NCBI GenBank assembly: GCA_030390025.1
Contig: CM059431.1
Span: forward strand, 94,242,001-94,306,000
Source of the DNA: Squalus acanthias
Lineage: Eukaryota
Reading direction: 5' to 3'
DNA length: 64,000 bases
The notes beneath the pieces are model-generated. The model worked only from the letters and a program-made list of their open reading frames with translations, made no database searches and was not told the DNA's origin. Positions 14,870-56,085 of the stretch are shown piece by piece. Numbering within the stretch: position 1 is the stretch's first letter; every line of letters begins with the position of its first letter. Made by a program: the position numbers and the translations under genes.

Positions 14870-15050
14870 TGACCTACATTGCTGTGCACTCCAGTGTAAT
14901 ACATTCAGAGCTTTATATTTGTTTTAAAAATCTTTACTTCTTAGAAATGCAATGTAACTCCTCAGAAACCTGTCTGTGTCCTCTGTGCATTGATTTCAAT
15001 CTGTTTCAGTTTCATTTCTACTAACAACTCATATTGTCTCCGTCTTCCAG

Positions 15051-15159: not shown

Positions 15160-15396
15160 GTAAGTATGTTGTAAAACCTGGTCGACATACATAGGCTGAA
15201 ATATATGGGCACATTAGTGGGCTTCAGGTGTACAGAAGGGATCACAGTGCCACTTCCCATGTATACTCATTGGAAGATGATCTCCGTGAAAGTACCATAC
15301 AACTTGGTTACCATGGAAACTACTTTTGCTGCAGTGCCAGCCTCTGATGGCTTTTATTGCCGTAGAGTGAAACGATAGACATTACCTGCTCTAAAC

Positions 15397-16660: not shown

Positions 16661-16990
16661 ATGTCAGGCTCCATTGCTTTGCTGGGGAGGTCTCTTCCAT
16701 CCATCAGGAGGGAAGAGGATCTCCCTGCGTGCTCTGACTCCCTCCACAAGCATGTGGAGGGAGTCATCGGAGAACCTGGGTGCAGCCCTCTGCCTCTGTG
16801 CAGTCATTTGTGCCCCTGTGTCCAGCAGTGGAAGCCAATTGCAGTGACTGCACACTCCTAGATGAACCTTTGAATGCAATATGGCCATGGTCCCTTTAAA
16901 TATACCAGCTGAAAACACATCATCGATGATGTCACTATTCCCGCTCCATTTAATTGGGCTGGGCAACACGCAGGGCAGGCTTAATAGGCT
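16660..16990 (-). mobile_element. Harbinger fragment with 5' end of a Myb/SANT gene
   Basis: AAPRFSDDSLHMLVEGVRARREILFPPDG; homologous to 41280-41560. Confidence 0.7.
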
Positions 16991-17249
16991 CTATTATCGG
17001 AAAGTCATTCTGTGGAGCGGGATGGAGGTAGCAACAGAGATCGTGTCATCAGTAAGTGTGCAACACTCACTTGACGCCCAATCTTCCAACTTCGTTACAG
17101 CCAATGAACTAAAGGGGAGTTCATTGATGTTGCAGCACCTCATTCTCATCATTGTTGGGTGTGCAGCTGCCCTGACATTCCGAACAAGAAGAAGAAGTAG
17201 AAGCAGAAGGAGAAGGAGAAGGATCCGAAGCAGTGAATAAGTTGTCGTG

Positions 17250-18386
17250 ATGGCAGATCGCCGCCCCAGGGAGAGAGCCTGGAGGTTCTCTGATGAAGCT
17301 TTGGAGACATTGTTTTTTGCGGTGGAGAGAAGGAGGACGGTCCCACCAACTGGCAGGAGGCCCTCGCCACAAGTGTTCCGCACCACGTGGAGGGAGGTAG
17401 CGCAGCATGTCACCAGCAGCACTGTGGTCCCCAGGAGCCACACCCAGTGCAGGAAGAAGTTTAACGACCTCACATGGGTGGTCAGGGTGAGTGAACCTTC
17501 AACAAATGCTGCATACCACCATCTGTACCACAAGATACACACACTGCCCAAAGCACCACACCCCCAGCACTCACCCAACAACAATCTCTACCTACCAACA
17601 CTCACACCCACATCTCAAACTTTGCACACAATGACAGCTATTCAACTATGGCAGACACATCACCCAAACACATTGCTCCACACTCACTCACACACTTTCC
17701 TTCCTCTTACAGGCCAAGGTGGCTCACAACCGGAGGGAGTAGAAGCGCACAGGCGGGGGCCAAGCCCACATTGAACATCTGAGTGACCTGGATAATTGAG
17801 TGCTGCAGATCATTGGCCGCCAGCTCGTGGGCACCATGGCCACCGGCGACATTAACCGCTTGGGGACAACAAGAGTATGTTCATCCCTACTCCTTCTTCT
17901 CCCATCCCACTTCCCCCTCAGCCCACAATTGTTTCGCACTTTCAAGTTAATCATGCTGTATGCATGCATTTCTGCCTTCCTGCCCCCCTCCCCTCACCTT
18001 AACTCGACTCTTGTGCTTTTCTGCTTTCAGATTATCAGCAAGCACCCGAGCAGCCTGTCCCTGAGGACACTGCAGAGAGCGTGACGGGAGAAGAGGAGCA
18101 GGAAGAACACACCACGGCACTGCATGTCTCACCCGCAGACACCAGCTCAGATACTGGCACTATGCGTTCTTTAGAGGCTAGTATAGTAGCGGAACCTGCA
18201 CCGTGTGAGGCACCGGGCACGAGTGGGCTGCAGCAAGGCCAGAGGGAAAGTGTAGCTCGGGAGCCAGCTCCCCGGAGGGTGAGTTCGCGCGTGAGTTCTG
18301 CTGCACAGGACTCAGATGAGGACCTCGATGGGGAGGCCTTTAGTAGAAGGGTGATGGGCATGCACACGGAAATGATAGGTGCAATG
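17250..18386 (+). pseudogene. Harbinger Myb/SANT (NAIF1/MSANTD-like) gene, spliced, copy 1, truncated
   Basis: Exon 1 17250-17486 (RFSDEALETL...WREVA...RSHTQCRKKFNDL) |GTGAGT; exon 2 17713-17874 with stop codons; exon 3 from 18031, breaks at 18386. Confidence 0.85.
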
Positions 18387-21300: not shown

Positions 21301-21535
21301 AATTTGCAAAACGTTTGCAGTCTCCAGAAGAAGCAAGGCTGCTTGCAGGCCTTAAATCCAGCAGCATTGATGATGTCATCGGAGGCGACTTGGGCCAGGG
21401 GTTCCCACATGCAGGAAATCAATTGCCCAATTAGGGGAAAATCCCACTTTTTCAACACTTCACTTAGGAGTCGGGGTTCTGACACGATTTCCACCTGACA
21501 CGCCCCAGCCCGCTCACACTGGCAAAATTCAACCC
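18387..21535 (-). mobile_element. Second-family Harbinger with Myb/SANT gene on the minus strand
   Basis: TIR-like AAAATTCAACCC ending 21535; exon 1 21275-21036 (SRFDEPS...WLQVAEEV...RTWLQCRKK), exon 2 from 20710 (EKRAHNKRERAMTGGG), exon 3 from 20393 with heptad repeats; left terminus not found. Confidence 0.75.
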
Positions 21536-24297
21536 ATTGGTTTTCGCTGTGGAGAGACGGAGGGCGATGCTCTACCCAGCAAGTTGCAGGAGGCCCTCGC
21601 CGCAAGTCTTCTGCACCATGTGGAGGGAGGTAGCGCAGCACATCTCGGGCAGCACTGTGGTCCCCAGGACCCACACCCAGTGCAGGAAGAAATTTAATGA
21701 GCTAATTCGGGTGGTCAGGGTGAGTGAAGGCTTCAACAAATGCTACAGACCACCATCTGAGCCACAATCTACACACACTGCCCAAAGCACCACACCCCCA
21801 GCATTCACCCACCAACAATCTCCACCTACCAACACTCACACCCACATCTCACACCTTGCACACAATGACAGCTATTCAACTATGGCAGGCACATCACCCA
21901 AACACATTACTCCACACTCAATCACACACTTTCCTTTCTCTTGCATGCCAAAGTGGCTCACAACCGGATGGAGCAGGAGTGCACAGGCAGGGGACAAGCT
22001 GTCACCCAACCACTGTCTGCACTGGAGAATAGAGTGCTGGAGATTATTGGGTGCCAGGTGGTGGACGCCGTGGCCACCGGCAATGTTGACCTCCTTGGGG
22101 ACAACAACGGTATGTTCATCCCTACTCCTTCCTCTCACATCCCACTTCCCCCTCACCCCACAAGTGTTTCACTCTTTCCAGCTAATCATGCTGTATGCAT
22201 GTATTTCTCTCTTCCTGCCCTCCTCCCCTCACCTTAACCCGGCTCTTGTGCCTCTATGCTTTGAGATAATCAGAAGCACCTGAGCATCCTGTCCCTGAAG
22301 GCACCGCTAGAGAACAAGGCGGGAGAAGAGGAGGAGGAAGAACACACCGCGTCACTGCATCTCTCACCCGCAGACACCAGCTCAGATACTGATACTATGC
22401 GTTCTTTAGAGGCTAGTATAGCAGTGGGATCTGCACAGGGTGAGGCACCGGGGATGAGTGGGCTGCAGCAAGGCTGGGGAAAGGGTAGCTCGGGGGCTAG
22501 CTCCCCGGAGGGTGAGTTCGTGCGTGAGTTCTGCTGCACAGGACTCAGAGGAGGACCTCAATGGGGAGGCCTTTAGTGGAAGGGTGATGGGCATGCACAC
22601 AGAGATGATAGGTGCAATGGCAAGGGTGCCCGAGAGCCTCTCGGCAATGGGAAGGAGCATGGAGGAATCCGCCTCCAATATTGCACAAAGCTCTGCACGT
22701 CTGCAAAGGATGGTAGACTCTTAGAGAGACCATGGCGACCCAGACCTGATGCCGCGTGTGATGGGCGATCTGGCAGCTTCCATTGCAGCGCAGGCGGAAG
22801 TGACGCAACGTCTTAGTGCTGTAATGGAGTCTACGCTTGGTGGCATCCGATCTCAGACTGCTCTCATGCAGTCTCAGCTTGATGCCACGCATGCTCTGAC
22901 TGCTGCCATCTTGGCTGGGTCTACCACCGTCAACCAGGGCTTTCACAGTGTCGCAGCAGGCCAGCAATCTGTGCTCTAACAAATTGCTAAGGATGCTGAG
23001 GTGCTGCCCCAGGGGAGGGACAGTGGGTCAGTGAAGCAGGAACCTGCTGTTCTCTCTCAGGATGACAGCATTCCTGTTCCAACCACTGCCACTCCACCAT
23101 TGCCCTGTCACTGCCTGTCATCCAGCCAGCCCAGACTGCTGCCATCCATGCCGAGGTGGTGCAGTCTGCAGCCGGGCCTTACAGGGCCAGAGCTGGTCGA
23201 GGGCATCCTGCAAGGCCATCTGAATCTCCCGCATGGACACTCAGCAGCCTTCCACCAGCCCTGCTGCAGCCACTGGGCCAACACTTCATAGGAGCACTAG
23301 AGTCTGCATAGGCACAGTAACAACAGGCACTAAGGGATTGCACAAGGGTGAATAGTTAATATTTTTGTTGTAAAAATGTGTTCACTGATTTTTGAAAAAT
23401 TTATTAATTCACTTAACATTCTTTTGTGATGTCACATTTCAGCTTTGGGGTGTGACACGCCCTGCGAGAGAGAATGAATGATACGGATGTGGTGAGCAAA
23501 GGGGATGTGGGCTTTTAGTCATCCTGGTGTGAGGCTGGAGGTCTGTTTGAAGGAGATGGCAGAGTTCTGTGACCACCTCCTTGGTGAGGCGGAGCCGTCT
23601 AATACACTGCTCCTTGCTTCATTGAAGGTAGGAGAAGTGCTGTCGGAATACCCTCGGAGGGTAAGGCCTCCTGGTGAGAGCCCAGATGTCCCTCCTCATC
23701 TCACTGCGTACATGCTCCCGTCTTTCTCGCTGCCTTTGCTCTCTATGTGGGTGAGGTGGCATGCGAATATAGCCCCCATTAATGTTACCAAGTGTAGCAG
23801 TTTGATTCTTTGAAGAATAAATGTAGCTACTTTTTAGTTGCCGCAAGAATCCTGATACAAAAGAACCTTGAAATTACTGAAGTAAACTGTTTTACTATGT
23901 GAAACTGACAAGAAACCACTGAAACTACACTAACCTGAGAGCTGTGAATGATTACTGATGATCCCTTTAAATAACGTTCCTCAAGCCAGCTTCCTGGTGC
24001 TTCATGCCAGCTCTACCTGTCGGTGTTTACTCCAGATGCTAAGATAAGTGGCGAAAGTCAACTGAGCAGATCGGGCGGACAGTGAGCGTTGCACACTCAC
24101 TGACATATCGATCCACCTGGCGTTGACATTCCCGGTGATACCTCTTACCGGCGGCGCTACGGGGGGTGGCAGGGGGGGGACATGGGATTTGGTGTGTGGC
24201 GCTGCAATCGCCTCGCCCCGGTGATACAGGTCTAGCGCCCCATTAGCACCATCTGCTGACGCTAACGGGAGGCGCTAAGAGGACGAATTTTCCCCCC
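21536..24297 (+). mobile_element. Harbinger, copy 2 of family A: Myb/SANT pseudogene (+), transposase 5' remnant (-), right TIR
   Basis: 21536-22620 aligns with 17310-18386; RRPYPPRVFRQHFSYL on minus (ORF 23619-23846); ends GAATTTTCCCCCC like 56536. Confidence 0.85.
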
Positions 24298-29862: not shown

Positions 29863-30472
29863 GTCCTTGATGCCACATTCGGTTAAATGCTGCCTTGATG
29901 TCAAGGACAGTCAATCTCACCTCACCTCTGGAATTCAGCTCCCTTGTCCATGTTTGGACCAAGGCTGTAATGAGGTTAGGAGCCGATTGGTCCTGGCAGA
30001 ACACAAACTGAGCAGCGGCGAACAGGTTATTGGTGAGTAAGTGCTGCTTGATAGCACTGTCGACGGCACCTTCCATCACTTTGCTGATGATTGAGAGTAG
30101 ACTGATGGGGAGGTAATTGGCCGGATTGGATTGGTCCTGTTTTTTGTGGACAGGACATACCTGGGCAGTTTTCCACATTGTCGGGTAGATGCCAGTGTTG
30201 TAGTTTAGCGAAAGGCGCGGCCAGTTCTGGAGCAGAAGTCTTCAGCACGACAGCTGAGATGTTTTAGGGGCCCACAGCCTTTGGGATATCCAATGCGCTC
30301 AGCCATTTCTTGATATCACGTGGAGTGAATTGAATTGGCTGAAGACTGGCTTCTGTGATGGTGGGGACCTCAGGAGGAGGCCATACTAAATCATAAGTCT
30401 AAAAGGACAAAGGATGTTATTAAAACAAGCCTAAAGGCTCTGTGTCTTAATGCAAGGAGTATCCGTAATAAG

Positions 30473-33238
30473 GTGGATGAATTGACTGTGCAAATAGATG
30501 TTAACGGATACGATGTGATTGGGATTACAGAGACGTGGCTCCAGAACAATCAAGGCTGGGAACTGAACATCCAGAGGTATTCAACATTCAGAAAGGATAG
30601 AATAAAAGGAAAAGGGGGTGGGGTAGCATTGCTGGTTAAAGAGGAGATTAATGCAATAGCTAGGAAGGACATCAGCTTGGAGGATGTGGAATCAATATGG
30701 GTTGAGCTGCAGAACACCAAAGGGCAGAAAACGTTAGTGGGAGTTGTGTACAGACCTCCAAACAGCAGTAGTGAGGTGGGGGAGGGTATGAAGCAGGAAA
30801 TCAGAGGTGCGTGCAAAAAAGGCACGGCAGTTATCATGGGTGACTTTAATATGCATATAGATTGGGCTACTCAAACTGGAAGCAATACGGTGGAGGAGGA
30901 TTTCCTGGAGTGTTTAAGGGATGGTTTCCTAAACCAATATGTTGAGGAACCAACTAGAGGGGAGGCCATCCTGGACTGGGTGTTGTGTAATGAGGAAGGA
31001 CTAATCAGCAATCTTGTGGTACGAGGCCCCCTGGGGAAGAGTGACCATAGTATGGTGGAGTTCTACATTAGGATGGAGAAGGAAACAGTTAAGTCAGAGA
31101 CCATGGTCCAGAACTTAAATAAGGGCAACTTTGAGGGTATGAGGCGTGAATTGGCGAGGTTAAATTGGCAAGCGATATTTAAGGGGCTATCAGTGGAAGG
31201 GCAATGGCAGACATTTAGAGATCGCATGGATGAACTACAACAATTGTACATCCCGGTCTGGCGTAAAAATAAAAAAGGGAAGGTGGCTCAACCATGGCTA
31301 ACAAGGGAAATCAGGGATAGTATTAAAACCAAGGAAGTTGCATACAAATTGGCCAGAAGTTGCAGCAAACCCGGGGACTGGGAGAACTTTAAAACTCAGC
31401 AGAGGAGGACGAAGGGTTTGATTAGGGCAGGGAAAATAAAATATGAAAGGAAGCTTGCAGAGAACATTAAAATGGACTGCAAAAGCTTCTATAAATATGT
31501 AAAAAGAAAGAGGTTAGTAAAAACAAACGTAGGTCCCCTGCAGTCGGAAACAGGGGAAGTCGTAATGGGGAACAAGGAAATGGCAGATCAATTAAACAAA
31601 TACTTTGGTTCGGTGTTTACTGTGGAGGACACACACAACCTGCCGGAAATAAAAGGGGTCAGAGGATCTGGTAAGAGGGAGGAGCTGAGGGAAATCCTTA
31701 TTAGTCGGGAAAAGGTATTGGGGAAATTGATGGGACTGAAGGCTGAAAAATCCCCGGGGCCTGATGGTCTGCATCCCAGAGTACTTAAGGAGGTGGCCTT
31801 GGAAATAGTGGATGCATTGACGATCATTTTCCAACATTCCTTAGACTCTGGATCAGTTCCGATGGAGTGGAGGGTGGCCAATGTAACCCCTCTTTTTAAG
31901 AAAGGAGGGAGGGAGAAAACAGGGAATTATAGACCGGTCAGCCTGACATCGGTCATGGGTAAAATGATGGAAGCAATTATTAAAGATGTCATAACAGACC
32001 ATTTGGAAAGTGGCGACATGATAGGTCCAAGTCAGCATGGATTTGTGAAAGGGAAATCATGCTTGACAAATCTTCTGGAATTTTTTGAGGATGTTTCCAA
32101 TAGGGTGGACAGGGGGGAACCAGTAGATGTGGTGTATTTGGACTTTCAGAAGGCCTTCGACAAGGTTCCACACAAGAGATTGGTGAGCAAAGTTAAAGCA
32201 CATGGGATTGGGGGTAATGTGTTGACGTGGATTGAGAACTGGTTGGCACACAGGAAACAAAGAGTAGGAGTAAATGGGTACTTTTCAGAATGGCAGGCAG
32301 TGACCAGCGGGGTACCGCAGGGTTCGGTGCTGGGACCCCAGCTGTTTACATTATATATTAATGATTTGGACGAAGGGATTAAATGTAATATCTCCAAATT
32401 TGCGGATGACACTAAATTGGGAGGCAGTGTGAACAATGAGGAGGATGCTAGGAGGCTACAGAGTGACTTGGACAGGTTGGGTGAATGGGCAAATGTATGG
32501 CAGATGAAGTACAATGTGGATAAATGTGAGGTTATCCACTTTGGTGGTAAAAATAGGGAGGCAGACTATTACCTGAATGGTGGCAGATTAGGGAAAGGGG
32601 AGGCGCAACGAGACCTGGGCGTCATGGTACATCAGTCACTGAAGGTGGGAATGCAAGTGCAGCAGGCAGTCAAGAAAGCAAACGGAATGATGGCCTTCAT
32701 AGTAAGGGGATTTGAGTACAGGAGTAGGGAGGTGATGCTGCAGTTGTACAGGGCCTTGGTGAGGCCACACCTGGAGTATTGTGTGCAGTTTTGGTCTCCT
32801 AACTTAAGGAAGGACATTCTTGCTATTGAGGGAGTGCAGCGAAGGTTCACTAGATTGATTCCTGGGATGGCCGGTCTGACATATCAAGAAAGATTGGGTC
32901 AACTGAACTTGTATCCTCTGGAGTTCAGAAGAATGAGGGGGGATCTTATAGAGACATTTAAAATCCTGACTGGTTTAGACAAATTAGATGCGGGCAGAAT
33001 GTTCCCAATGTTAGGGAAAACTAGAACCAGGGGTCACAGTCTAAGGATTAAGGGGAAGCCATTTAAGACTGAGCTGAGGAGGAACTTCTTCACCCAGAGA
33101 GTGGTGAATCTATGGAATTCTCTTCCACAGAAGGTTGTTGAGGCCAGTTCGCTAAATATATTCAAAAGGGAGTTAGATATAACACTCACAACTAGGGGGA
33201 TCAAGAGGTATGGCGAGAAAGCAGGAATGGGGTACTGA
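30473..33238 (+). CDS. CR1 LINE ORF2 (APE endonuclease + reverse transcriptase), uninterrupted, within a 5'-truncated insertion ~30384-33337
   Basis: 921 aa without stops; GITETWL, MGDFN, SDH, YRPVSLTS, LDFQKAFDKV, GVPQGSVLGP, FADDTK; tail TTCTATGTTTCTATGTTTCTAT. Confidence 0.97.
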   Translation: MDELTVQIDVNGYDVIGITETWLQNNQGWELNIQRYSTFRKDRIKGKGGGVALLVKEEINAIARKDISLEDVESIWVELQNTKGQKTLVGVVYRPPNSSSEVGEGMKQEIRGACKKGTAVIMGDFNMHIDWATQTGSNTVEEDFLECLRDGFLNQYVEEPTRGEAILDWVLCNEEGLISNLVVRGPLGKSDHSMVEFYIRMEKETVKSETMVQNLNKGNFEGMRRELARLNWQAIFKGLSVEGQWQTFRDRMDELQQLYIPVWRKNKKGKVAQPWLTREIRDSIKTKEVAYKLARSCSKPGDWENFKTQQRRTKGLIRAGKIKYERKLAENIKMDCKSFYKYVKRKRLVKTNVGPLQSETGEVVMGNKEMADQLNKYFGSVFTVEDTHNLPEIKGVRGSGKREELREILISREKVLGKLMGLKAEKSPGPDGLHPRVLKEVALEIVDALTIIFQHSLDSGSVPMEWRVANVTPLFKKGGREKTGNYRPVSLTSVMGKMMEAIIKDVITDHLESGDMIGPSQHGFVKGKSCLTNLLEFFEDVSNRVDRGEPVDVVYLDFQKAFDKVPHKRLVSKVKAHGIGGNVLTWIENWLAHRKQRVGVNGYFSEWQAVTSGVPQGSVLGPQLFTLYINDLDEGIKCNISKFADDTKLGGSVNNEEDARRLQSDLDRLGEWANVWQMKYNVDKCEVIHFGGKNREADYYLNGGRLGKGEAQRDLGVMVHQSLKVGMQVQQAVKKANGMMAFIVRGFEYRSREVMLQLYRALVRPHLEYCVQFWSPNLRKDILAIEGVQRRFTRLIPGMAGLTYQERLGQLNLYPLEFRRMRGDLIETFKILTGLDKLDAGRMFPMLGKTRTRGHSLRIKGKPFKTELRRNFFTQRVVNLWNSLPQKVVEASSLNIFKRELDITLTTRGIKRYGEKAGMGY

Positions 33239-42950: not shown

Positions 42951-43963
42951 CTTTAAGCCGTGCGGCCAGTGCGGCTTCTAAATAGAAAAACAGTGCATGC
43001 GCCGAATTTTGAATGGACCACACACTTAACATTGCCTGTGACTGGGAGGAAGTGGTCTGACCAGAAACCTTGACGTCAGAAGCATGGCCTTCTCCACTTG
43101 CAGCACCACTTCCTGTCATCTCACTAACTTTAACGAACTCAAAAATCTCCAAACAGTTGCACAAACTTACACAGAGCCAGTAGAAATCAAAAAGCAAGTT
43201 ACCTTTAAATAGCAAAATGGGCACTACGCGACCAAAGTTCTAAGCCTAAGCAAAACAACTCATCTTAAGTTGTTACCATGGCGTCAGCTTGGTGGGTTTA
43301 CTAATGACTAAGAGATAAGACCAGAGATGCGTACATGAAGAACGAAGCATCCAAATAGTATAAAGACACGCCATACTGCACCCAAAAATTAGACCTCTTG
43401 GCACAGTCGGAGGTCCATAACCTTGATGGCAGCCCATGAAGGTCAAGTCTGATCACCTTGAAATCCGCGGGTAAGCCAGGCTGTATTAATTGCTTTTCAT
43501 TTAATGTAATGCTGTAGAGCAGTTGTGTAAAAACAATACTGTTATAAGTCAATATATATAAAATCTTGTTGTTTAAAACCACTTGGGCCAAAGCCACGCG
43601 GAATTTTTTGTTGCAGGGCTAACAACCCTTTATTGTGACAATAACCACGGGAAATCCGCTTTCAGAAAGTAATTTACTGGCTGTGAAACACTTTGTAGAT
43701 ATGATGTGCTGGATTCCACTCCAAGTCAGGTGAGATTGTGGCAGAATTGGTGGGAAAATGGAGTGATGAGGTCCATTGCTGCCTCTATCTTGATCTCAAT
43801 TTCCTCCTTTCACTAGGACTGCCACTGACGAACACTTACCCAATCAACCACATGCACCTCCTAAATTCCTGATGGATTATCCTGCTATCTGCCCCAGTTA
43901 CCGTCACTCCCGGAACTGCCTGGTGAAACGTGACAGTAGGCCTGGGTATCAGCAGTAATGGAC

Positions 43964-44746
43964 TGTAAGATTCTAAAAACTATAATAAAACCGCTGCTAC
44001 CGTGTGGAGATTGAAGTTCAGAATGAATTGTGAAATGGTTATGGAATACTCGGAAGTCAGCATGTTCCTTTGTTTGTGAAGACACAAAATGGCAGAAGTC
44101 AGCAGGGGGTCCTTTGCCTGGTGGTCAGTATGGTCCTTTGTGTGTAAGACCACATGGACAGGAAAGAGAAACATGAGTGACAAGGAAGTCCCGCCCCCAC
44201 ACACATCACAGGAACATGAACATCTCATGCAGAAGGAACTCCAGTCAGGGAAAGTTTGGAGTGAAACTGACATATCAGAGGGAGGCAGACAGTGATATAC
44301 GAGTGGGGCCGGCAGAAAGGCCCGATAAAATAATTGACCCAGAGGCGGGAAATTCAGAACAAAGAAAGAAGTATGGATGAACAGATGAACAAAGAAAGCT
44401 GGCCAGTCTATGTTTCAACTTACGACTTTTCCTGGACAGATCACCCAGAGATAAAGGAGCATGTATAAAAGTTGGACATAAGAGCTTAGATATTGTTAAA
44501 GTGTACTTTTATGTACGGTTGACTTGGGATATAAATCGCCAGAAGGTAGCATATAAGTTGCTGGGGTGTACTTTTATGTACAGTAAATTGGAAGCATATT
44601 GATTACGAGAGAATGCTTCTATGTACACTTGAAATTTGAACTATAGTGTAAATAAAGACCAATTTTATTGATCACATACTTATCTGTCATTGTTACGCTT
44701 ATTTGTAATTCTCAAAGTCTGAACAGTAGTAAGAGAATGGCTTACA
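43964..44746 (+). repeat. 5' LTR
   Basis: Direct repeat of 49776-50558; TATAAAA at ~44465; AATAAA at ~44651. Confidence 0.95.
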
Positions 44747-44750
44747 TAAA

Positions 44751-44768
44751 TGCCGATCATGAAGGGAC
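44751..44768 (+). promoter_or_regulatory. Primer binding site, probably tRNA-Arg(TCG)
   Basis: TGCCGATCATGAAGGGAC versus TGGCGACCACGAAGGGAC (complement of the vertebrate tRNA-Arg-TCG 3' end as recalled), 15/18 match, 4 nt after the LTR. Confidence 0.65.
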
Positions 44769-44798
44769 TTTGAGGGGAAAAAGCTTTTTTTTATAACA

Positions 44799-45795
44799 AT
44801 GCCGGACAAGAAAGTGAGAAGTATGGAGGATTTGGTAGCAAAATATATTAATGGAAAAATCGATAGAGATAAACCATGGGTTAGAGATATTGTGCAGAAC
44901 GATGACCCTGTACAAAAACTAAAGGAATGGATGGAAGGTCTGTTAGGAAAGGTGCCATGGTATAAAGCGATGTGGCTGTTAGCCTATCAAAGACAATTAG
45001 TTCAAAATAAGAAAGTGATGGATGAACAATCCAGAGAGATTGAGCAACTGAAACGAAAGGTGAACGACAGGGAAGTGGAGATGGACCACCAGTTAAAAGA
45101 GTTAGAGGAATTAAAAGAACAGAGACAAGCTGAAAAAGTGAAAGGGGAAAGTAACGTGGAATACTTGCAGTGTCAGGTGATGGAGTGTTCGAGGAGAGCT
45201 GATGAATGGGAGAAAAAAAGCCATAAGCAACATCGGCAGGCAGCCTCGGCTGAGGAAGTGTTAAGCAATGTAAAAACAGCATTGAAGGTGTAGCGGCAAC
45301 AAAAAGAGGGCGAAGCTGGTCACACTAAATGCCGAAAGGAAATTGAGCGATTGAAAGCTCGTCTATCAGTAGAGAAGGGGGATAATATGCTTGATGACCC
45401 CAGAGGAAGGAGATATGGAGGAGGAAGTAGAGGGGGAAGGAAAGTGGTCTGAGGATGAAACACAATACGGGGAATTGAGAATCCCGCCGGAAGTACCGGA
45501 ACCCCCGGTCCCACCGCCATTGAATCCTATGAGGCAGCAGAAATTTGGTTCCCCTGTCAGAGGACAGAACAGAGGGGTGTTAGAAAGTGATTATACCATA
45601 CCGTATAACACGACGCCATTGAAAGAAATGCTGGGTGATTTAGGGAAACTAGAAATGGGAGGTGAACTCCAAGGACATTTCATTGCAGTCGAACAAAGGG
45701 CAGCTGTAAGTGAAATGGATGAAGATGTAAAAATGAAGTTAACCCCGCCAGAAAAGGGAGGGAGACAGAATAAGTTGCTGAGGCAATTTAAGTGA
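44799..45795 (+). pseudogene. gag: gag-like gene, truncated
   Basis: ATG just after the PBS; long E/K/Q-rich coiled coil, stop at 45291, frameshift, Pro-rich linker, then PMR...YTIPY resembling a capsid N-terminus. Confidence 0.65.
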
Positions 45796-46879
45796 AGGAA
45801 AAAAAGGGGAAAATTAAAGTTTTACCGACACGAAGCTATTAGTTTCTGGCCAAAACAAGTAAAACACAGGAATTGCTGAGTGAAAGGAACCTTAAAAGAA
45901 TGTTGGAATTTCAGTTTTAGTGAAAGTGTGTGTTAAAAGTGTGGAAGTTTTCTGTTTCTTGAAAGAAGGTGTCTGGTGTGTTTGTTTCAGCTCCACCCAC
46001 TTTTCTGTACTGAGAGCTAGAAGTTGTTCAACCTTTTGTAGTCTTTTCTTGAATGATGGACAAGCGTGTGCTATTTTAAGTTTGTTAATTAAAATTCAAT
46101 TTAAGTTTGTGAATTGTTTTACAAAAGATAAGCTTCAGCCTTGAAGTTACAGTTGCCAATTTGAATGTTTACAAAGTATGTGTGAATGTTTCTTTGTTAG
46201 TGTGGCTTCTTCCTTTGTTTTTCAAGTGATACTGGTGAGTTTAAAATATTGGTTTGAATTGAATTGGAGTTATTGAGGTTAATTAACCTGTTAAAACCAG
46301 ACTTTTATTGTGGCCACGGTAAAATTCTGGTTGGTGTAAATTTGTGTGATAGCCTCTAGTTCTGGATATGAGGCAAAAACACATCAACACTTTTTGAAAT
46401 TTTTGACCAATTACAAGTATGGGTGTCCAGGGGGAAAAAAAGGAAATGCTATTTATTGTGTGGAGTTGCTTCACAGAATGTTTAGGATGTCTGATGCTTT
46501 TACGTGCTGAAGTGAATTGATCAGGATCTTAACAAAGATTTTAAAGGTACAAAGACTTTGCAAAAAGTAAAGATTTACTTGAAAGCTGTGAGAAGTTGTG
46601 TGAGAAAATCTGACAGTGATTGATGTCTGTGTTTGTCTTCTATTGAAATGCAAAAGTAAGAAGTTAACTCTTTTCACAAGCAGCTGTGAACTCTGTTTTT
46701 AACTCCACAACCAGATGTGGTTTTTGTAAACATTTTGGGCATTGTTTTAAATTTGAGTGGATGTTTCCCCACATTGACAGAAGGGCGTCGGAAATTGACG
46801 AATTCACCCATTTGGCTGTTCGGAAAGCCGCAATGGATTGTCTGTTTTTTCTTTTAAGCAGGGGGCCAGATGAGTGTTG

Positions 46880-47400
46880 ATGGTGCAAGATTACCAGCTG
46901 GGTAGAAGTCATCTCATGCAAGTCAGCCACGGCCAAGACCCTAGTTGAAGGGGTATTCTACAGATGGGGATGTCCTCCGTGATAGGGTCAGGCCAGGGAA
47001 GTCTTTTTACAGGTCAGGTAATGCAAGCCACTCTGAAATTGCTAGGAATTGAAGGGAAATGGCATGTAACCCACAACCCACAATCATCGGGGATTGTGGA
47101 AAGAATGAACTGTACATTGAAGTTGGCCCTGCGAAAGGAATTAAACGAACAACACACTAAGTGGGATAAGGGACTTTCCCTAATCCTTATGGGGATACAC
47201 AGTAACAGATCCAAAGGATCGGGTCATTCCCCTCATGAATTGGTAACGGGGAGACCCATGCGAACCCCCACATACCTGTTGGTTCCCACTCTGACTGATA
47301 AACAAACTAAGGAGGTGGCTCAGGACAAATTCCTGAGCGACCTGTGGGGATCTTTAAAGGAACTGAACTTGAGCCGCCCGTAACATTGGGAACAACATCG
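46880..47400 (+). pseudogene. pol: Integrase catalytic core remnant
   Basis: WVEVI..SATAKTL..RWG; SGQGSLFTG..LGI..HVTHNPQSSGIVERMNCTLK..WDKGL..SPHELVTGRPMRTP (rve motifs). Confidence 0.9.
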
Positions 47401-47505
47401 GCAACCTTGGGAGGAGGTGGGAGCAAACCAAAAAGGAAATGATGTTGAATGTGTGAATAAGAGAATGTGAATATTAACTGTGTTGTGTGTTACAGAAGCT
47501 CCAGG

Positions 47506-49600
47506 ATGGGGAAACTCCTCTACGCATTGAACGCTTTGATGCTCGTAATGGTTGGGATTGAACTATATCAGGAATCACAGCAGCTTGGAAACAGCACCAA
47601 TGGAACCATAACCTCACTGGATACAGGGTTTTCTGTTGTAAATGAGATGAATGTAACAATTAAAAATCAAACTATAACATGTTATAATTGGACAGTGAGA
47701 GTAACGGAGCAGAGGGTGCACGAGGGGCAAGGGATTTGTTTAAAATGTTCAAATGAGACCACTCCAAACGAGACAATCCTAGAACTTCGGTTTGCACCGG
47801 GTTAGACCACAAATAACTTGAGATTGAGGAAGGCAAGATAAATCGTAGCTACCCCGTTAATTGATGGGACAAGTTACTGTTGGACAAATTTCTGGTCAAG
47901 TAATCACACAGGAATATATATGTGTGTAAACAGAAATTTCTCCCATGATGATCCTCAAATTAAAAATTGTTATGATAATATTCAATGCCCTGATCAGTCC
48001 AAAGAAGCCATTCAATTAAAGGCGAAAGAGAAACCAGGGCCACCCGATGAAAGGAGTGAAAAGTGCCCCACCCCATTCCTTGCTCCAGTTAACGGATTGG
48101 TGTTGGTTCTGAGTGAGTTGTCAATGTTACATGATGTTGTATTAGATGCGAGGGAGGTTATTATCAATATGTCTAGTCTTGCCTTGCCAACATGGTACAG
48201 TGAACACACTAGAAACTGGTTAAGAGATAAAAAAGTGCAGTTAATAAAAACCTTTTGGAAGGAAAATAGTGATCAGGTCCCGAAATCATTGGTACAGAGG
48301 AGAAAGCGCAGTGTGCTTAATAATATAGCAACAATGTGGAATAGGATTGGTAAATACAGGGGATATTATGAGCCTGAACTATCAATTGGGAAAATTGAGA
48401 GAAAAGGTACAGCAGGCATTAAGAAACCAGAATAGCATAGGTAAAGTACAATTAGAAGCAGAATTGACCTTGATAATTCACATGCAAGGGTTGGTCAAAT
48501 TGTTGGAAAATCAGGCACAGGCCATAAACAATTTGACAAGGGAGGATAGAAACGCCTCTGATCAGGCAGCACGAAATGATGCATGCACGATGATGAGTTC
48601 TTGGATTCTACAGGACATAGGGAGGAATTTGAATAGAATAGCTGAGGGAAGGGTTCCAATTTGGATGGAAGATAAACACCTTAAGGCAGCAGAAAGGTAT
48701 CAGTCAAACTTGACAGTGTGTCAGTTGCAGTGTCTTCATTGTGGTACGTGTCGTGCCACATGAATGTAATCAGACTAACGATGATAGTTTGATAGGAATC
48801 ATATTAAGCATGCCCGTAATGTCCAAACCTTGGGCACCACTGCAGGTGTATAAGGTAGCCAATATGGGTTTCCTGAAAGAAGGTGTTTTAGATAAATATA
48901 CATCATTGCCTGGATATGTTGTTAAATATAACCAATCTCTCTATGAGGTAAAATTACATCTATGTAAGACCCAAGGAAGAACCACCATGTGTATGTATAA
49001 TGTCTTGGACGATGAAGAGCCGTTATGCGGATTTAACTTGACAAGGATGTCTAAGTATCAGTGTCAGGTCACTGCCGTAAGGTCGAAACAATATACCACC
49101 ATTGTTTATAAGGAACAGGGGGTATTGTTGGACCACCACAGAAACAAAGTATAAATATGGGCAAAAGAATGCTACAATATGTCTGGTATCTAACAGTACT
49201 ATGTGTATTAAACCTAAAAGGATGGTAAAAATCAGGAACAGGACTATTCTGCCTTTAATGGATCAGAATCCAATGCATGTTAAGGCATCAACCGGGGTAG
49301 ACGATATGGAGAAATACGTGTCCAAATTTGGATATGGGTTGCCTTGGATAAATTAAAATCTCACTGAGTTTGTGAAACAGATTGGAGAAGTGGGAAGGAC
49401 ATTCTCAGTATTAATGCCAGAATAATAACCTCGTTAATGAACGAGGCGACTTCTTGGTGGGATTTGAGATATAATCGTATAGACTTAGCTCCGTGGATAA
49501 GACTGTGCTCACAAGCTCTGCTATGGTTACAGCTAATGTGTGTGATTGTGCTTATGTGGGAATGCGGGCAAGACATAAACAAAGAGAGAACAAGTGAAGA
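47506..49600 (+). pseudogene. env: Envelope/fusion glycoprotein gene with stops and frameshifts
   Basis: Signal peptide MGKLLYALNALMLVMVG; many N-x-S/T sequons; furin site RRKR at 48298-48309; heptad region; Cys-rich region; C-terminal hydrophobic anchor WIRLCSQALLWLQLMCVIVLMW; candidate splice acceptor TTACAG ending 47495. Confidence 0.85.
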
Positions 49601-49775
49601 CAATTTAAGCGTACGAGGGAATTGTTATGGGATCAGCTTTAATAATGTGAAATGGGGGTATAGATATTGTATTATAGGGGATAAAAGGGGACTATGTCCG
49701 ATCGGAATACATACTGCTCCAACTCTGGTGAAATGTCTGCACATGAATAAACATGAGAGACATTGAAGGGAGGAC

Positions 49776-50558
49776 TGTAAGATTCTAAAAACTGTAATAA
49801 AACCGCTGCTACCATGTGGAGATCAAAGTTCAGCATGAATTGTGAAATGGTTATGGAATACTCGGAAGTCAGCATGTTCCTTTGTTTGTGAAGACACAAA
49901 ATGGCAGAAGTCAGCAGGGGGTCCTTTGCCTGGTGGTCAGCATGGTCCTTTGTGTGTAAGACCACATGGACAGGAAGGAGAAACATGAGTGACGAGGAAG
50001 TCCCGTCCCCACACACATCACAGGAACATGAAAGTGTCATGCAGAAGGAACTCCAATCAAGGAAGGTTTGGAGTGAAACTGACCTATCAGAGGGAGGCAG
50101 ACAGTGATATACAAGGGGGGCCGGCAGAAAGGCCCTATAAAAGAATTGACCCAAAGGCGGGAAATTCAGAACAAAGAAAGAAGAACGGATGAACAGATGA
50201 TCAAAGAAAGCTGGCCAGTCTATGTTTCGACTTACGACTTTTCCTGGACCGATCACCCAGAGATTAAGGAGTATGTATAAAAGTTGGACATAAGAGCTTA
50301 GATATTGTTAAAGGGTAGTTTTATGTACAGTTGACTTGGGATATAAATCGTCAGAAGGTAGGGTATATGTTGCTGGGGTGTACTTTTATGTACGGTAAAT
50401 TGGAAGCATATTGATTGCGAAAGAATGCTTCTATGTGCACTTGAATTTTGAACTATAGTGTTAATAAAGACCAATTTTATTGATCACATATTTATCTGTC
50501 ATTGTTACGCTTATTCATAATTCTCGAAGTCCAAACAGTAGTAAGAGAAGGGCTTACA
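49776..50558 (+). repeat. 3' LTR
   Basis: Preceded by polypurine tract GAAGGGAGGA; same length as the 5' LTR. Confidence 0.95.
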
Positions 50559-51293
50559 GGCCCCGATGTACTCAAGTGGAGGGAGAAAGCCTAGTGTAGG
50601 CCTCTTCTCTCTCCATTTGGGTTCAACCTACTTACTTTAGTCCTCAGTTGGTCAAGGCCTAAAAGTGAATGTTCCCTTTTCCTCTTTGGGGCTCTTCTGC
50701 CTCTTTAATTCGCAGGCCACCTCTTCTGGTACTCCACCAGCAGTCCTGCTCCAGCACCACTGGGATATTCCATCATTAGCAGTGACAGGCTCCCTCTTGT
50801 GGTGGTGGTCTTGCCTGGAGACCACCTTATATGCAAAATAAGCCCTGGCCCAAGGAAATGGATTAGTGTTGTAGTGGTGTGAAGGCGGCAAGCGGAAGTC
50901 CTGCCCTGTCCCACCATGATATCACTACAAAGAGGAAAATACAACACAAGTCATGACAACAACCCAACAAGTTCTTCTTTCTTTAAATACTTTCTTTTTG
51001 CCAATCATCTCCCCTGTCCCTAATATGCCTGGGGATAGTTCGACAAGTTCAAACTTCCAGGGGTCTCGCCCAAGAGGCTGCTGTTTGTGAGCCAAAAATA
51101 AAACCCACACCAACGATCAAACCGAGCGATGGCAAACTACGGCTGTTTCAGCTTTGTCACAAAATAACTAAACAAACAACTTCATCACAATTTAAAAAAA
51201 TTACAAGTCTGAGTTTATTTTGGACTTAGAAGGTCATCACTCCTTTGTGTATGTGGATTCTCTGGAGCGGGGAAAGTTTTTGAGGATGCGCTG

Positions 51294-51661
51294 TGTTGTG
51301 GAGTAATTTGAAATACTCAACACAAGTCTGATATCGAGAGTTCAAGCATTCTTTATTCGCACGCGTGGGGAGACAGCCTGCTTCTGTCTAGGCCAAGCTT
51401 CTCCCAATTGTTCCAGCAGTGGTCAGATATTTATACATCCAAATGGTGCGTTATACATTGTTCCCGCCTCTTTTCTAGGACATTCTATGTTACAACGTCG
51501 TTTGTCCCAGTTCCTGTTAATACCAGGTGGCGCACCCTTGCCCTAATTTTGAGAATTGGTAACTCCATGTCTATTGTGGCCCGACTCATTGTCAGCTGCC
51601 TAAGTCATGTGGTTCCTATTGCGGTTCTCCGTCTGCACAGATACATTATCTTGCAACAACA
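51294..51661 (-). mobile_element. Probable solo LTR
   Basis: TGTTGT...ACAACA termini; flanks GCTG/GCTC; minus-strand TATAAAT (~51430) and AATAAA (~51352). Confidence 0.5.
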
Positions 51662-52335: not shown

Positions 52336-53088
52336 ATCCTCAAAATATTTCCCCACTCCAAAGAATCCGTGCACACGAAAGAGTGATGACCTTCTCTGTC
52401 CACAAAAATCACAGACCTGTAATTCTATTGTGATAAAGTGCTGTTGAAATGCGATGTTCTTTCTTTGAATAATGTATTTGGGGAATTAATCCCACTGTGG
52501 CCCATGATTCAGTCACCTGCCATCATATTATCAGGCCCATTATATTCCACAGTATCTGAACATTACTTATAACTGGACTTATTTCACCAGCTCCACTTCA
52601 TAAACAGTTAAGAAACACAATTTGAACCAAATGAATATCTCTGTTTCACACATAAGACATCAAAAATTACTATTAGTTATGTTTGCTACAGAGGCTGAGG
52701 ATATACATAACAATCTAGAAAATTAACATAAACTGACAAATAGCTTTAAAAGACCTGACACAGCCCCACATAAATGACAACTCAAAAATGGCCTTCAAGC
52801 TCTGAGAGGTGAAAACAAATAATTGCTGCAGTGAAAGTGCAGTAGGATACCACTGTCGGTAAAACCAACATTCCTTCAGTCATATTGGAGACAATGGGGG
52901 GAAAATTGGGTCTTGCCAATTTTGGGGCGCTAATATCGGCCGGGCACAAAGCTTAGCGCCGAGTGCGAAATTCGCCTCTATCGCCCCTGGAGGTGATTTG
53001 AGCGCTAAATCAGGCGCTACACACCTCTCTTAAGGTGCTAACATCGGGGAGCGAGGCGCTACCTCAGAACGCTACCGAAGCTCAGGCG

Positions 53089-53340
53089 ATGGGAGGCACA
53101 TCTGCCAAACACATGGCTGCACACAATAACGGCTATTCAACTATAGGAGGCACAACAGCCAAACACATGACTGCACACAATAACAGCTATTCAACTATGG
53201 GAGGCACATCAGCTAAACACATGGCTGCACAGAATAACGGCTATTCAACTATGGGAGGCAAATCTGCCAACCACATGGCTGCACACAATAACGGCTATTC
53301 GACTATGGGAGGCACATCAGCCAAACACATAGCTGCACAC
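53089..53340 (+). repeat. 54-bp tandem repeat, ~4.6 copies
   Basis: ATGGGAGGCACATCTGCCAAACACATGGCTGCACACAATAACGGCTATTCAACT, units starting 53089, 53143, 53197, 53251, 53305. Confidence 0.95.
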
Positions 53341-53369
53341 TCACTCAGACGCTGTCCTTTTTCTCGCAG

Positions 53370-54647
53370 GCCAAGCTCTCTCATAACAGGTGGGAGCAGC
53401 AATGCACGGGAGGAGGACTGGCTGACCTATACCCGCTGACCGATTTGGAGGCCAGAGTGCACAGGATCGTTGCCAGCCAGGTCACAGGTGCCGTGGCCAC
53501 TGGAGAGATCCACCCCCTTGGAGACAGCAATGGTATGTTCATCAGCTTTTTCTCCTCTCTCATACCACTTGCCTCTCACAACACCAGCCTTTTACACTTT
53601 CAATCCAACTAACAGTTTCTAGCCCTTGCTCCCTTCCTGCCCCCCCACTAAAGCCACTCTTGTATCTTCCTGCTTTCAGATACTGAACCACCAGCTGACC
53701 AGCCTGTCCCTCAACCTGCCAGTGGCAGCGATGTGCCAGACAAGGAGGAAGAGGAAGCCGGAGGCTCACCGCCTGCGTGTCCCGAGGATGACACATCCGA
53801 CACTGGGGCCACGCCTTCCCTGGAGGGGAGCAGGGGGTTAGGGTCTGATGAGGGCATGCACACTGAGCTCATGGGTGCAATGGCAAGGGTGTCCGACAGC
53901 ATGGATACACTGGCTAGGAGCGTGGAGGAGTCCACCGCCAGCACAGCTGTCATCTATGCGCAAACCCTTGAACCCATCCTTGCCTCGTTGCAGAGGATGG
54001 TGGAATTGCAGGGAGACTGTGGTGATCCAGGGCCCATGCCGCGTGTAATGGGTGAGGTGGCAGGATCCATTGCAGCACAGGCCAACGCAACGCAACGGTT
54101 TAGTGCTGCAATCGAGTCATTGGCTGGTGCCATCCAGTCTCAGACTGCTCTCATGCAGTCTCAGATTGATGTCAAGCAAGTGCTGACTGCTGCCATCCTT
54201 GCTGTGTCGCCCACAGTCCCACGGGGATCTCATGGTACCACAGCAGGCCAGCAATCTGTGCTCGAGTAGATTGCTCCGGATGCTGAGGTACTGCCCCGGG
54301 GGAGTGACAGTGTGTTGGTCGAGCAGGAAGGTGCTGTCCTCTCTCAGGATGACAGCATTCCTGCTCCCACCACTGCCACTTCCCCATTGCACTTGTCATG
54401 GCCTGCAACACAGCCAGCCCAGACTGCTGCCGCCCATGCAGAGTTGGTGCAGTCTGCAGCCGGGCCCTCCAGGCCCAGAGCTGGTCGAGGGCGTCCTTCA
54501 AGGCCATCTGCAGTCTCTGGATCCAGAACTCAGCAGCCTTCCACCAGCCTTGCTGCAGCCACTGGGGCCACATTACAGAGGAGCAGTAGGGTGGGAAGGG
54601 CGGAAGTGCGCAAGGGATGGAGATCACCCTCGAAGGCCCAGCAGTAG
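53370..54647 (+). pseudogene. Harbinger Myb/SANT gene exons 2-3 (exon 1 missing)
   Basis: Acceptor TCGCAG|GCCAAG; donor GTATGT ~53533; acceptor CTTTCAG ~53679; homologous to 22270-23290. Confidence 0.8.
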
Positions 54648-54954: not shown

Positions 54955-56085
54955 TTAGAATCGGTGTCTTATGAGCTGTTCACGGACGGCCCTTGCAGTG
55001 GCAACATTGTGCGCCTCCCTCCCATGTTGGTGCTGCTGATCCTCCTCTTCATCCTCCTCTTCCTCTTCTCCCTCTTCCTCCTCCTCCTCAGGTGGTCCAC
55101 CAATCCCTGGTGGCAATGGTTGGATCCTCATGATTGCAATGTTATGCAGCACACAACAATGAAAAGGGAGACTCGCTCGGGAGAGTACTGCAGGGCTCCT
55201 CCTGAGTGGTCCAGACACCGGAACCGTTGTTTCAACACGCCGATCGTCTGCTCTATGAGGTTCCTGATGGCGCTATGGCTCTCATTATATTGCAGTTTGG
55301 CAGGGGTGTTGGGGGTTATGGAGCGGTGTCATCAGTCAGGTGCAGAGTGGGTAACCCTTGTCCCCGAGGTTGACGTGGTGCTTGGAAGAGGTCTGCGACA
55401 CCAGTCTGGCACAGGATGAAAGCATCATGGCTGCTGCCAGGATAACGGGCATTGACGGCAAGTATGAGCTGTCTGTGGTCACAGACAAACTGGACATTCA
55501 AAGAGTGGAAGCCCTTGTGGTTTTGGAAAACCTCTGCATTCTCATGAGGTGCCTGCAATGCCACATGCGTGCAGTCAATGGCGCCCTGAACCACGGGGAA
55601 GCCTGCTATCCTAGCGAAGCCACATGCGCATTCGCACTGTTTGTCCTGGGTCATGGGGAACGAGATGTACTGGCGGCTCCTTTTTTGTCACCTCCCGGAT
55701 GCAACAATGAACGGCGAACTGGGAGATATTCACTATGTCTCCAGTAGAAGCCTGAAAGGAGCCACTGGCATAAAACTTGAGAGCCACCGTCACCTTCATT
55801 GCCACGACAGAGATGTCCTGGTCCTGAGCTGAGGCTGCAGATCTGGTTGCAGGAGGCGGCAGAGCTCAGTGACCACCTCCTTGCTGAAGTGCAGTCTGCG
55901 GAAACACTGCTCCTCGGACAAATGAATATAGGAGAATTTTACCCGGAATACCCTGGGAGGGTAAGGTCTCCTGTGCAGAGGCTTGTTGGCCCTCCTTCTG
56001 GCCACATTTGTCACACTCTCTCTCTGCGCCTCTGCTGCCTCCGAAGGTGAAGCTGGACATCGCCCCAAGTTAGTACAGCCCCCAT
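54955..56085 (-). pseudogene. Harbinger (HARBI1-like, DDE_Tnp_4) transposase, frameshifted
   Basis: RRPYPPRVFR; VALKFYASGSFQ; GFPVVQGAIDCTHV; KGFHSLNVQFVCD; YPGSSHDAFIL; DKGYP; IEQTIGVLKQRFRCL; CVLHNIA. Confidence 0.93.

Follow-up and report, generated by a model that had tools for sequence, protein, structure and literature searches.

Envelopes of the F type link retroviruses, lokiretroviruses, foamy viruses and negative-strand RNA viruses, and which of them first owned the fusogen is debated (PMC7947760; PMC11468914). Two described groups come closest to the element studied here. Lokiretroviruses are defined by the phylogeny of their reverse transcriptase (RT), in which they form, with the Odin elements, a clade sister to Retroviridae. 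Their Env matches the Pfam family Fusion_gly (PF00523) at E 2.2e-7, their pol has a tether domain and RNase H, and their integrase groups with CGIN1 genes, apart from the integrases of foamy viruses (Wang and Han, Mol Biol Evol 2021, PMC7947760). The Env of foamy viruses also has F domains I-III and the heptad regions HRA and HRB (PMC11468914). Is there an envelope of this kind in cartilaginous fish as well? Here we analyse an element at positions 43964 to 50558 of a 64,000-nucleotide stretch of Squalus acanthias DNA (assembly GCA_030390025.1, contig CM059431.1, positions 94,242,001 to 94,306,000 of the forward strand). The whole stretch is called the window below, and all positions are those of the window. 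An earlier note on this DNA described the element as a lokiretrovirus-like provirus with an F-protein-type envelope. The region probably represents a single copy, old, defective and fixed in the germline, from a multi-copy family of endogenous retroviruses (ERVs) in shark-type genomes, and its env would have had a class I build like that of paramyxo-/pneumovirus F1 and the foamy virus transmembrane subunit.

The outer frame of the element agrees exactly with the limits given in the earlier note. By direct-repeat scan and pairwise alignment, the element is delimited by a pair of long terminal repeats (LTRs) on the forward strand, at 43964-44746 and 49776-50558. Each is 783 bp long, and the two align without a gap at 93.87% identity, with 48 differences (30 transitions and 18 transversions) and a Kimura two-parameter distance of 0.064. 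Both have TGTAAG..CTTACA termini, of the TG..CA form, and in each the motifs follow an order of the U3-R-U5 type, with TATAAA at 44464 and 44530 and AATAAA at 44651 in the 5' LTR. The polypurine tract named by the earlier note was found as well: GAAGGGAGGAC at 49765-49775 (+) adjoins the 3' LTR, and the border reads GGAGGAC followed by TGTAAG. A candidate 4-bp target-site duplication flanks the element, with GGAC at 43960-43963 and GGCC at 50559-50562 (both +), which match in three of four places. The candidate is ambiguous, because GGAC is also the end of the purine tract preceding the 3' LTR. How old is the insertion? The estimate depends wholly on the rate assumed. The distance between the LTRs corresponds to about 15 million years (My) at 2.2e-9, the rate used in PMC7947760, to 64 My at 0.5e-9, the rate assumed for the catshark in PMC10699275, and to ten times about 15 My at 2.2e-10, the rate assumed by Han 2015.

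The internal part between the LTRs is 5029 bp long, and its last portion is the env region, 47506-49766 (+), which begins with an ATG at 47506 and ends with a stop at 49764-49766 overlapping the polypurine tract. The earlier note claimed an env of about 2.1 kb. A region of env size does exist, but it is not open. It can be read on the forward strand in six pieces over three frames: pieces 1, 2 and 5 in frame 1 (47461-47802, 47842-48432 and 49081-49353), piece 3 in frame 2 (48329-48760), and pieces 4 and 6 in frame 3 (48714-49154 and 49368-49763). There are three in-frame stops (47803-47805, 47839-47841 and 49354-49356) and at least four frame changes, near 48340, 48740, 49075-49120 and 49400-49430, which were placed from collinear protein matches and reading frames. 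Because env is full of stops and frame changes, the copy has no present function beyond supplying LTR sequence.

Across these lesions the layout of env can still be followed. The surface-subunit part, 47506-48309, opens with a hydrophobic signal-type segment (47509-47565) that begins two residues past the first Met, and closes with the furin-type site RRKR at 48298-48309. This site lies 268 codons after the first ATG, in line with the roughly 265 codons of the earlier note. The start of the fusion subunit and the first long heptad or helical region (HRA) occupy 48310-48730. A beta-rich, cysteine-rich region between the heptad regions follows at 48750-49353, and the last part, 49357-49763, was placed by frames and hydropathy and holds the second heptad region (about 49357-49470), the membrane anchor (49503-49559) and the cytoplasmic tail. 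The best 19-residue hydropathy, 1.93, is at 49503. From RRKR to the anchor end there are about 417 codons, close to the 400 residues estimated before. A minimal furin-type motif, RKAR, stands at 47827-47838, about 110 codons into env and directly before an in-frame stop; it may be a second cleavage mark or chance. There is no CX6CC and no LQNRR-type motif in the three forward frames, as the earlier note had said of CX6CC and the immunosuppressive-domain motif, and the env open reading frame (ORF) has no WXXW and no long leader peptide. In the ancestral env, a signal peptide would have been followed by some 240 residues of surface part, then by the furin cut at RRKR and by a fusion subunit that measured about 420 residues up to the anchor end. 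The fusion subunit would have begun with a long N-terminal heptad region, followed by a disulphide-rich beta domain, another heptad region and the anchor, in the manner of paramyxo-/pneumovirus F1 and of the transmembrane subunit of foamy Env.

Which proteins are related to this env? A HMMER search with env piece 4 over 1,835,955,588 representatives gave five proteins at E <= 0.001. Two of them were discarded as repetitive false matches, and the three true relatives are all shark proteins, 211-323 residues long and annotated as uncharacterised or hypothetical. P0002 (E 2.2e-9) and P0003 are proteins of the Japanese sawshark Pristiophorus japonicus, and P0004 is one of the brownbanded bamboo shark Chiloscyllium punctatum, with XP_043564602-604 of C. 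plagiosum in its cluster. A word-seeded search with P0003 gave 8 relatives among 819 candidates: three from the sawshark, one from the cloudy catshark (Scyliorhinus torazame) and four JGI/Logan fragments, which supply the anchor and tail of the family. The relatives come from four shark species. P0007, a sawshark protein of 419 residues, starts shortly before an RQRR site and reaches the second heptad region. By blastp, four of the six env pieces are collinear with shark proteins at 25-38% identity and 33-100 bits. Piece 2 matches P0009 with the residues encoded by 48064-48195 (34% identity over 44 residues); piece 3 matches P0003, P0007, P0008 and P0009 (32-36% identity, 83-100 bits), in P0007 over residues 45-175; pieces 4 and 5 match P0007 over residues 183-285 and 293-375, and the beta-rich region matches P0002 too. 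Pieces 1 and 6 have no blastp match to family proteins at E 0.01, and only by eye does piece 6, in its anchor region, look like the C-terminal parts of P0010-P0012. Nine cysteine columns are conserved in every sequence covering them, the env pieces of the window included. No family protein longer than 566 residues was found. DNA collections were searched as well, for Env with a three-sequence alignment: metagenome contigs gave 196 pattern matches, of which none was confirmed as a relative, and viral contigs gave 225 with the Env alignment and 4 with the integrase piece, again with none confirmed. By sequence, env belongs to a family seen so far only in sharks. Its only true relatives among the 1.84 billion representatives are shark proteins, which supports a host of shark type, as the earlier note had proposed.

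One member of the family is annotated as a host gene. P0006 (XP_043564602/3/4 of Chiloscyllium plagiosum, three protein records of LOC122559310) is an Env-family fragment of 317 residues that covers the heptad region to the cysteine-rich domain and has no signal peptide or anchor. Its locus is probably an ERV remnant.

Did env encode a class I fusion glycoprotein? The window itself provides the furin site, two heptad regions and the anchor, and the folding of the heptad regions was modelled on the relative P0007. In its AlphaFold2 model, made from 13 sequences and poor overall, the predicted secondary structure is clear, with helices over residues 31-76, 84-146 and 382-413 and, between the last two of these, a part rich in strands (179-333). 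Residues 31-150 of P0007, in three copies, were then folded with three copies of residues 372-419. The packing score was 0.68, while the best of three controls scored 0.02; this is a pass for the relative, not for the env of the window, and it may reflect likeness to solved six-helix bundles. In the calibration, 51 of 78 solved complexes and 2 of 108 mismatched pairs came up to the packing mark. At least 64% of contacts agree between the runs, and the partner has a pLDDT (predicted local distance difference test) of at least 51. The contacts are antiparallel (90 with 387, 83 with 391-398, 76 with 398-405), which is the geometry of the six-helix bundle, a textbook structure. We infer from these features and the modelled packing that env once encoded a class I viral fusion glycoprotein. 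After cleavage and triggering, its trimer would fold back to a six-helix bundle and merge the membranes.

A class I env of the gamma type is not what the element has, and here the earlier note was right. ERVs with gamma-type Env have been reported from six cartilaginous fish genomes (bioRxiv 10.1101/2021.11.23.469661), and the present element is an env-bearing ERV like them. However, its env lacks CX6CC, the immunosuppressive-domain motif and a match to TLV_coat (PF00429), and its fusion subunit is about three times longer.

Then is env a member of the F superfamily? Pfam was scanned with 11 ORF pieces of the element (E <= 1), with its six stop-as-X read-through frames (E <= 5) and with 13 family members (E <= 10). 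Env piece 4 matches PF00523 at E 0.0018 (17.1 bits, cut-off 29.8), with piece residues 44-133 aligned to profile positions 270-357 of 487, between the heptad regions. We take the matched stretch to be the domain I/II region of F0, at about the right distance from the cleavage site. In the ESM Atlas, the nearest named clusters to P0007 are a PF00523 cluster (0.92, 201/256 features), a Baculo_F cluster (0.92, 195) and another PF00523 cluster (0.92, 198), the first of which is 83% PF00523. Among the 30 nearest named clusters, 13 belong to the PF00523 set, 8 to the Baculo_F set and 4 to the set of Baculo_F with Gypsy. For the Atlas model of P0007, the TM-score is 0.58 with a Baculo_F cluster and 0.55 with a cluster of 874 residues that is Chordata-only. 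In a Foldseek search of the AlphaFold2 model of P0007 against 350,542 PDB chains, the listed rows down to rank 23 are all F of respiratory syncytial virus, human metapneumovirus or measles virus, or foamy virus Env (8rm1, 8rm0), with postfusion and prefusion chains of the last at ranks 12 and 23. Compared with paramyxo-/pneumovirus F0 (PF00523; PDB 3rrr, 5l1x, 8utf), the order of cleavage site, HRA, cysteine-rich beta domains, HRB and anchor is the same and the fusion subunit has a similar length, and it is F0 that takes the top PDB ranks and the top Atlas places. On the other hand, the gene here is part of an LTR element, not of a negative-strand RNA genome, its score is below the Pfam threshold, and it has about 240 residues before the cleavage site, as against about 100 which we take to be usual in F0. 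Layout, size and these three weak-to-moderate lines (Pfam, Atlas and Foldseek) speak for the F-type env of the earlier note. We infer that membership of env in the F superfamily is quite likely, and its F-type affinity is moderately supported.

Several results weigh against this reading. All of the F-type evidence is below every curated threshold. The PF00523 match is under its cut-off and is found in 1 of the 13 family members and 1 of the 6 read-through frames. In the calibration of the Atlas, 4-10% of shuffled proteins reach 0.9, and env piece 4 of the window itself gave no usable Atlas match. The AlphaFold2 model of P0007 is poor (pLDDT 37.5, predicted TM-score 0.20); with it, the PDB hits have E no better than 6e-3 and TM-scores of 0.08-0.15. 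In BFVD the same model finds a torovirus spike fragment first (E 2.1e-3), and F0 only at ranks 16 and 49 among the best 50 listed, amid phage fibres and polyproteins. The check by AlphaFold and Foldseek that the earlier note had suggested gave F and foamy Env at the top ranks of the PDB, a result which BFVD did not reproduce. The family profile matches no F or foamy Env among PDB sequences, where it has five matches with a MAP kinase as the best (E 0.025), and another sequence search of solved PDB proteins for a link to F or foamy Env gave no match. Other points concern the element as a whole. No full-length Env relative was found among 3302 candidates of 422-1344 residues or 1771 candidates of 567-2000 residues, and the relatives from which alone the host type was judged are 25-38% identical. 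A recognisable capsid was not found in the gag-like region. The primer-binding site claimed in the earlier note was not recovered either: the leader at 44747-44798 (+), where the site is expected, begins TAAATGCCGATCATG, and no TGG-initiated site follows the end of the 5' LTR at 44746, for which decay is a possible reason. ARAGORN found no tRNA gene in the window that could serve for comparison, and no tRNA and no Rfam family was found within or near the element.

The rest of the internal part is poorly preserved. An intact member of the family would have the order LTR-gag-pol-env-LTR. From this copy protease, RT and RNase H are gone, along with most of integrase, and an unrelated repeat has been gained. 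The Pfam scans of the 11 ORF pieces and six read-through frames gave no match to protease, RT, RNase H, rve, Gag, TLV_coat or Foamy_virus_ENV. At the position of gag, which the earlier note listed, there are two ORFs, at 44799-45290 (+; 164 codons from an ATG, rich in coiled coil) and, in another frame, at 45373-45792 (+; proline-rich and then cut off). The first touches only sub-threshold coiled-coil families and the second no family; since neither has a Pfam or PDB relative, the label gag is positional. In its surviving part the coiled-coil-rich, gag-like ORF has no Cys-His box. The place of protease and RT is occupied by a non-coding, very-high-copy repeat at 45840-46407, which was recognised by contig depth, has no coding frame and has no second copy within the window. 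The integrase of the earlier note stands in part. At 46949-47380 (+) there is a remnant of the catalytic core, tool-supported over 46964-47272, which is the C-terminal half only and includes the glutamate region ..GIVERMN... Against PDB sequences this piece has 116 matches at E <= 10, and the best 60 of the 116 are all retroviral integrases. The best is the integrase of prototype foamy virus (E 2.7e-10, 43.6 bits, query residues 6-108), followed by lentiviral (3.6e-9 to 1e-5) and deltaretroviral ones (1.1e-5). The piece is similar to the DDE core of retroviral integrases; where the second aspartate should stand, it has G. The stretch 46884-46982, in another frame, looks integrase-like by eye only, with no integrase match in the PDB and nothing in Pfam.

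Is this copy alone in its genome? To answer from public data, contigs of four sequencing runs with at least 80% likeness were aligned to 43000-51500. The family is present in the organisms of all four runs. In run X1 the summed contig depth, which according to the tool's own warning is not copy number, is 234-906 in env bins and 230-1,200 over gag and env bins, and it is 26 in the flank bin 50952-51235, so that env bins have 9-35 times the depth of the flank. Up to 29 different contigs carry a single variant site. We read the depth and the variant-carrying contigs only as a sign of many diverged copies, and the element is a member of a multi-copy family. The insertion itself can also be followed. 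In two other organisms (runs X6 and X8) contigs bridge the 5' junction (43176-44031, with 68 letters inside the LTR and 54-55 differing) and the 3' junction (50509-51323 or 50509-51357, with 50 letters inside the LTR and 43-46 differing). These contigs are about 93-95% identical to the window, and the 3' flank is near single-copy by depth. With both junctions bridged and the 3' flank near single-copy, the insertion would be common to several species; it seems to be shared by species about 5% apart, which is consistent with the 6% distance between the LTRs.

Three further observations come from the same contigs. The repeat at 45840-46407 reaches a summed depth of 8,800-18,900 in run X1 and is 10-70 times deeper than the rest of the element in all four runs, with 16,600 in the run guessed to be RNA. 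In all three DNA-type runs, contig depth over the integrase-core bin 46976-47259 is 4-10 times that over env bins, so closely similar integrase (at least 80%) occurs in more copies or families than this env does. In run X19, whose RNA label is a guess of the tool, env contigs are at depth 3-9, which is not evidence of transcription.

To which lineage does the family belong? Loki-like and spuma-like elements cannot be told apart by an F-like env, because the Env of foamy viruses is itself F-like, which the earlier note did not consider. A spuma-like shark ERV is at least as likely as a loki-like one, and what is left beyond these two falls to other or new lineages. The first of them, a spuma-like (class III, foamy-like) shark ERV, perhaps in or near the published endogenous foamy viruses of cartilaginous fish, is a serious possibility, though short of probable; its Env would look F-like because foamy Env does. 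This family may already be covered by a J Virol paper of 2023 on an endogenous foamy virus of cartilaginous fish, which is cited in PMC11468914. Shared with foamy viruses are a fusion subunit of about 420 residues with HRA, beta-rich domain and HRB, and with no CX6CC or immunosuppressive domain, a coiled-coil-rich gag-like ORF with no Cys-His box in its surviving part, and two furin-type motifs. The integrase piece is closest to prototype foamy virus among the best 60 of its 116 PDB matches, foamy Env with F domains I-III, HRA and HRB is in the Foldseek list, and the deeper integrase bin fits an integrase common to more abundant relatives. Within Chondrichthyes, RT loci of clade III outnumber those of other clades, with 2843 in 6 genomes (PMC11089739). 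For 'ERV-Spuma' elements of the catshark, no detectable Gag or Env domains were reported (PMC10699275), as is the Pfam result here. In teleosts, the env-like ORFs of foamy-like ERVs are about 718 residues long and are recognised only by anchors and furin sites, and in one such ERV, Env has RKAR upstream of the surface/transmembrane site (PMC5210030); here RKAR is at 47827 of the window and RRKR at 48298. Foamy viruses typically make a 4-bp target duplication (PMC5210030), and the flanks here are a candidate for one, matching in three of four places.

Other characters do not agree with foamy viruses. GGGTG at the border of polypurine tract and LTR was reported in the teleost foamy-like ERVs of PMC5210030, where it is described as common to foamy viruses; the border here is GGAC followed by TG. 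PF03408 and Gag_spuma were matched by none of the 13 family members, none of the six read-through frames and none of the 11 ORF pieces. This result leaves room for distant kinship, because teleost foamy-like env was called by anchors and not by similarity. No primer-binding site of the tRNA-Lys type was found after the 5' LTR, and no ORF, accessory or other, lies between env and the 3' LTR. The N-terminal signal segment is ordinary, with no long leader peptide or WXXW, and the LTR of 783 bp is also unlike that of foamy viruses. The surface part is much shorter, about 240 residues as against about 445, which we take to be the foamy value. Foamy_virus_ENV is not given for any of the 30 nearest named Atlas clusters, though the Atlas may contain no cluster of that kind.

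A second reading is that the family is an undescribed, elasmobranch-wide retroviral lineage with a compact F-type env (about 240 residues of surface part and about 420 of fusion subunit). It would then be either the first lokiretrovirus of cartilaginous fish or a lineage of its own, distinct from both loki and foamy. We consider it possible but somewhat doubtful. Its narrower form, the one closest to the earlier note, would make the family a lokiretrovirus, the first of cartilaginous fish, with a Mononegavirales-F-like Env, and this is unlikely. The likeness is considerable. Both are LTR elements found in aquatic vertebrates, in both the 3' LTR comes directly after env, and the Env layout of signal peptide, RXKR site, fusion peptide, coiled coil and anchor is equal. 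PF00523 is the only Pfam virus family touched, and the nearest Atlas clusters are of PF00523. Env stops at the polypurine tract and no accessory ORF comes after it, in keeping with the simple gag-pol-env organisation of lokiretroviruses, and the coiled-coil-rich first ORF could, speculatively, echo the smc-like gene of some of them. However, RT, whose phylogeny is the defining character of lokiretroviruses, is absent from this copy, together with tether and RNase H. The integrase piece is foamy-like, being nearest to prototype foamy virus among solved structures, and not demonstrably CGIN1-like as a lokiretroviral one should be, a comparison with PDB chains that leans against a lokiretrovirus. 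The published PF00523 signal is stronger by five orders of magnitude than the one here (E 0.0018), and the host class is outside the published range.

Could the F matches be due to chance? In that case env would be a class I fusogen unrelated to F, either an unrecognised retroviral transmembrane protein or one similar to S2 of coronaviruses and toroviruses. This is quite unlikely. The sub-threshold scores, the poor model of P0007, the torovirus spike fragment as the best BFVD match and the family profile with no F match in the PDB would all fit it. Against it, three different methods, namely the Pfam profile, language-model features and 3Di strings compared with the PDB, converge on the F superfamily. 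In addition, the Pfam match is positioned relative to the cleavage site as F domain I/II presumably is, and 201/256 shared features is in the Atlas range for true family members. It is very improbable that the element is a Ty3/gypsy-type LTR retrotransposon with a captured F-type env, as in errantiviruses: baculovirus F and errantivirus/gypsy Env (PF12259, PF07253) are also F-superfamily fusogens, on reverse-transcribing elements, and Baculo_F and Baculo_F with Gypsy make up 12 of the 30 nearest Atlas clusters, with the TM-score of 0.58 to one of them, but neither Pfam family was matched in the six read-through frames and 13 family members, the integrase is of the retroviral type with no Ty3 chain among the best 60 of 116 PDB matches, the host is a vertebrate, and Chary and Hayashi (PMC13524379) report that they know of no vertebrate ERVs homologous to the invertebrate env-carrying gypsy elements.

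The surroundings of the element are rich in repeats. A 12-kb minisatellite at 2803-14857 has a 27-bp unit in about 448 copies with 93% matches, and is open in several frames on both strands. A 54-bp tandem repeat lies at 53035-53358, with five overlapping copies of a 108-nt reference at 61-100% identity. An uninterrupted ORF of 959 codons of a long interspersed nuclear element (LINE) is at 30359-33235 (+), with matches to Exo_endo_phos (E 1.5e-13) and RVT_1 (E 1.3e-34), and several broken LINE fragments are found on both strands at 25-40 kb and 59-63 kb of the window. At 55319-55687 (-) there is a transposase fragment of the Harbinger/PIF type (DDE_Tnp_4, E 3.5e-15). The ORF at 17241-17771 (+) has a weak Myb/SANT-like match (E 3e-4); the ORFs at 21483-22280 (+) and 53652-54266 (+) have no Pfam family, resemble it by eye and may be further copies.

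What does the element mean for the history of F-type envelopes? It modestly extends a known pattern; the interest is in the family, and the copy itself is an ordinary dead provirus with no present function. In the papers searched we found no report of an F-type ERV envelope in cartilaginous fish, the sole jawed-fish group for which none turned up, and the endogenous foamy virus paper in J Virol of 2023 may bear on the point. The available text of PMC11089739 mentions lokiretroviruses and sharks, and in that text an F-type Env in cartilaginous fish is not claimed. The family offers a handle on the question of fusogen origin, with natural shark proteins that are now labelled 'uncharacterised', such as XP_043564602 of the whitespotted bamboo shark. 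If the family is indeed an undescribed lineage, whether loki or separate, F-type envelopes would occur in every fish-grade vertebrate class. This would make a stronger case for an F-type fusogen, and not a gamma-type transmembrane protein, as the ancestral envelope of retrovirus-like viruses.

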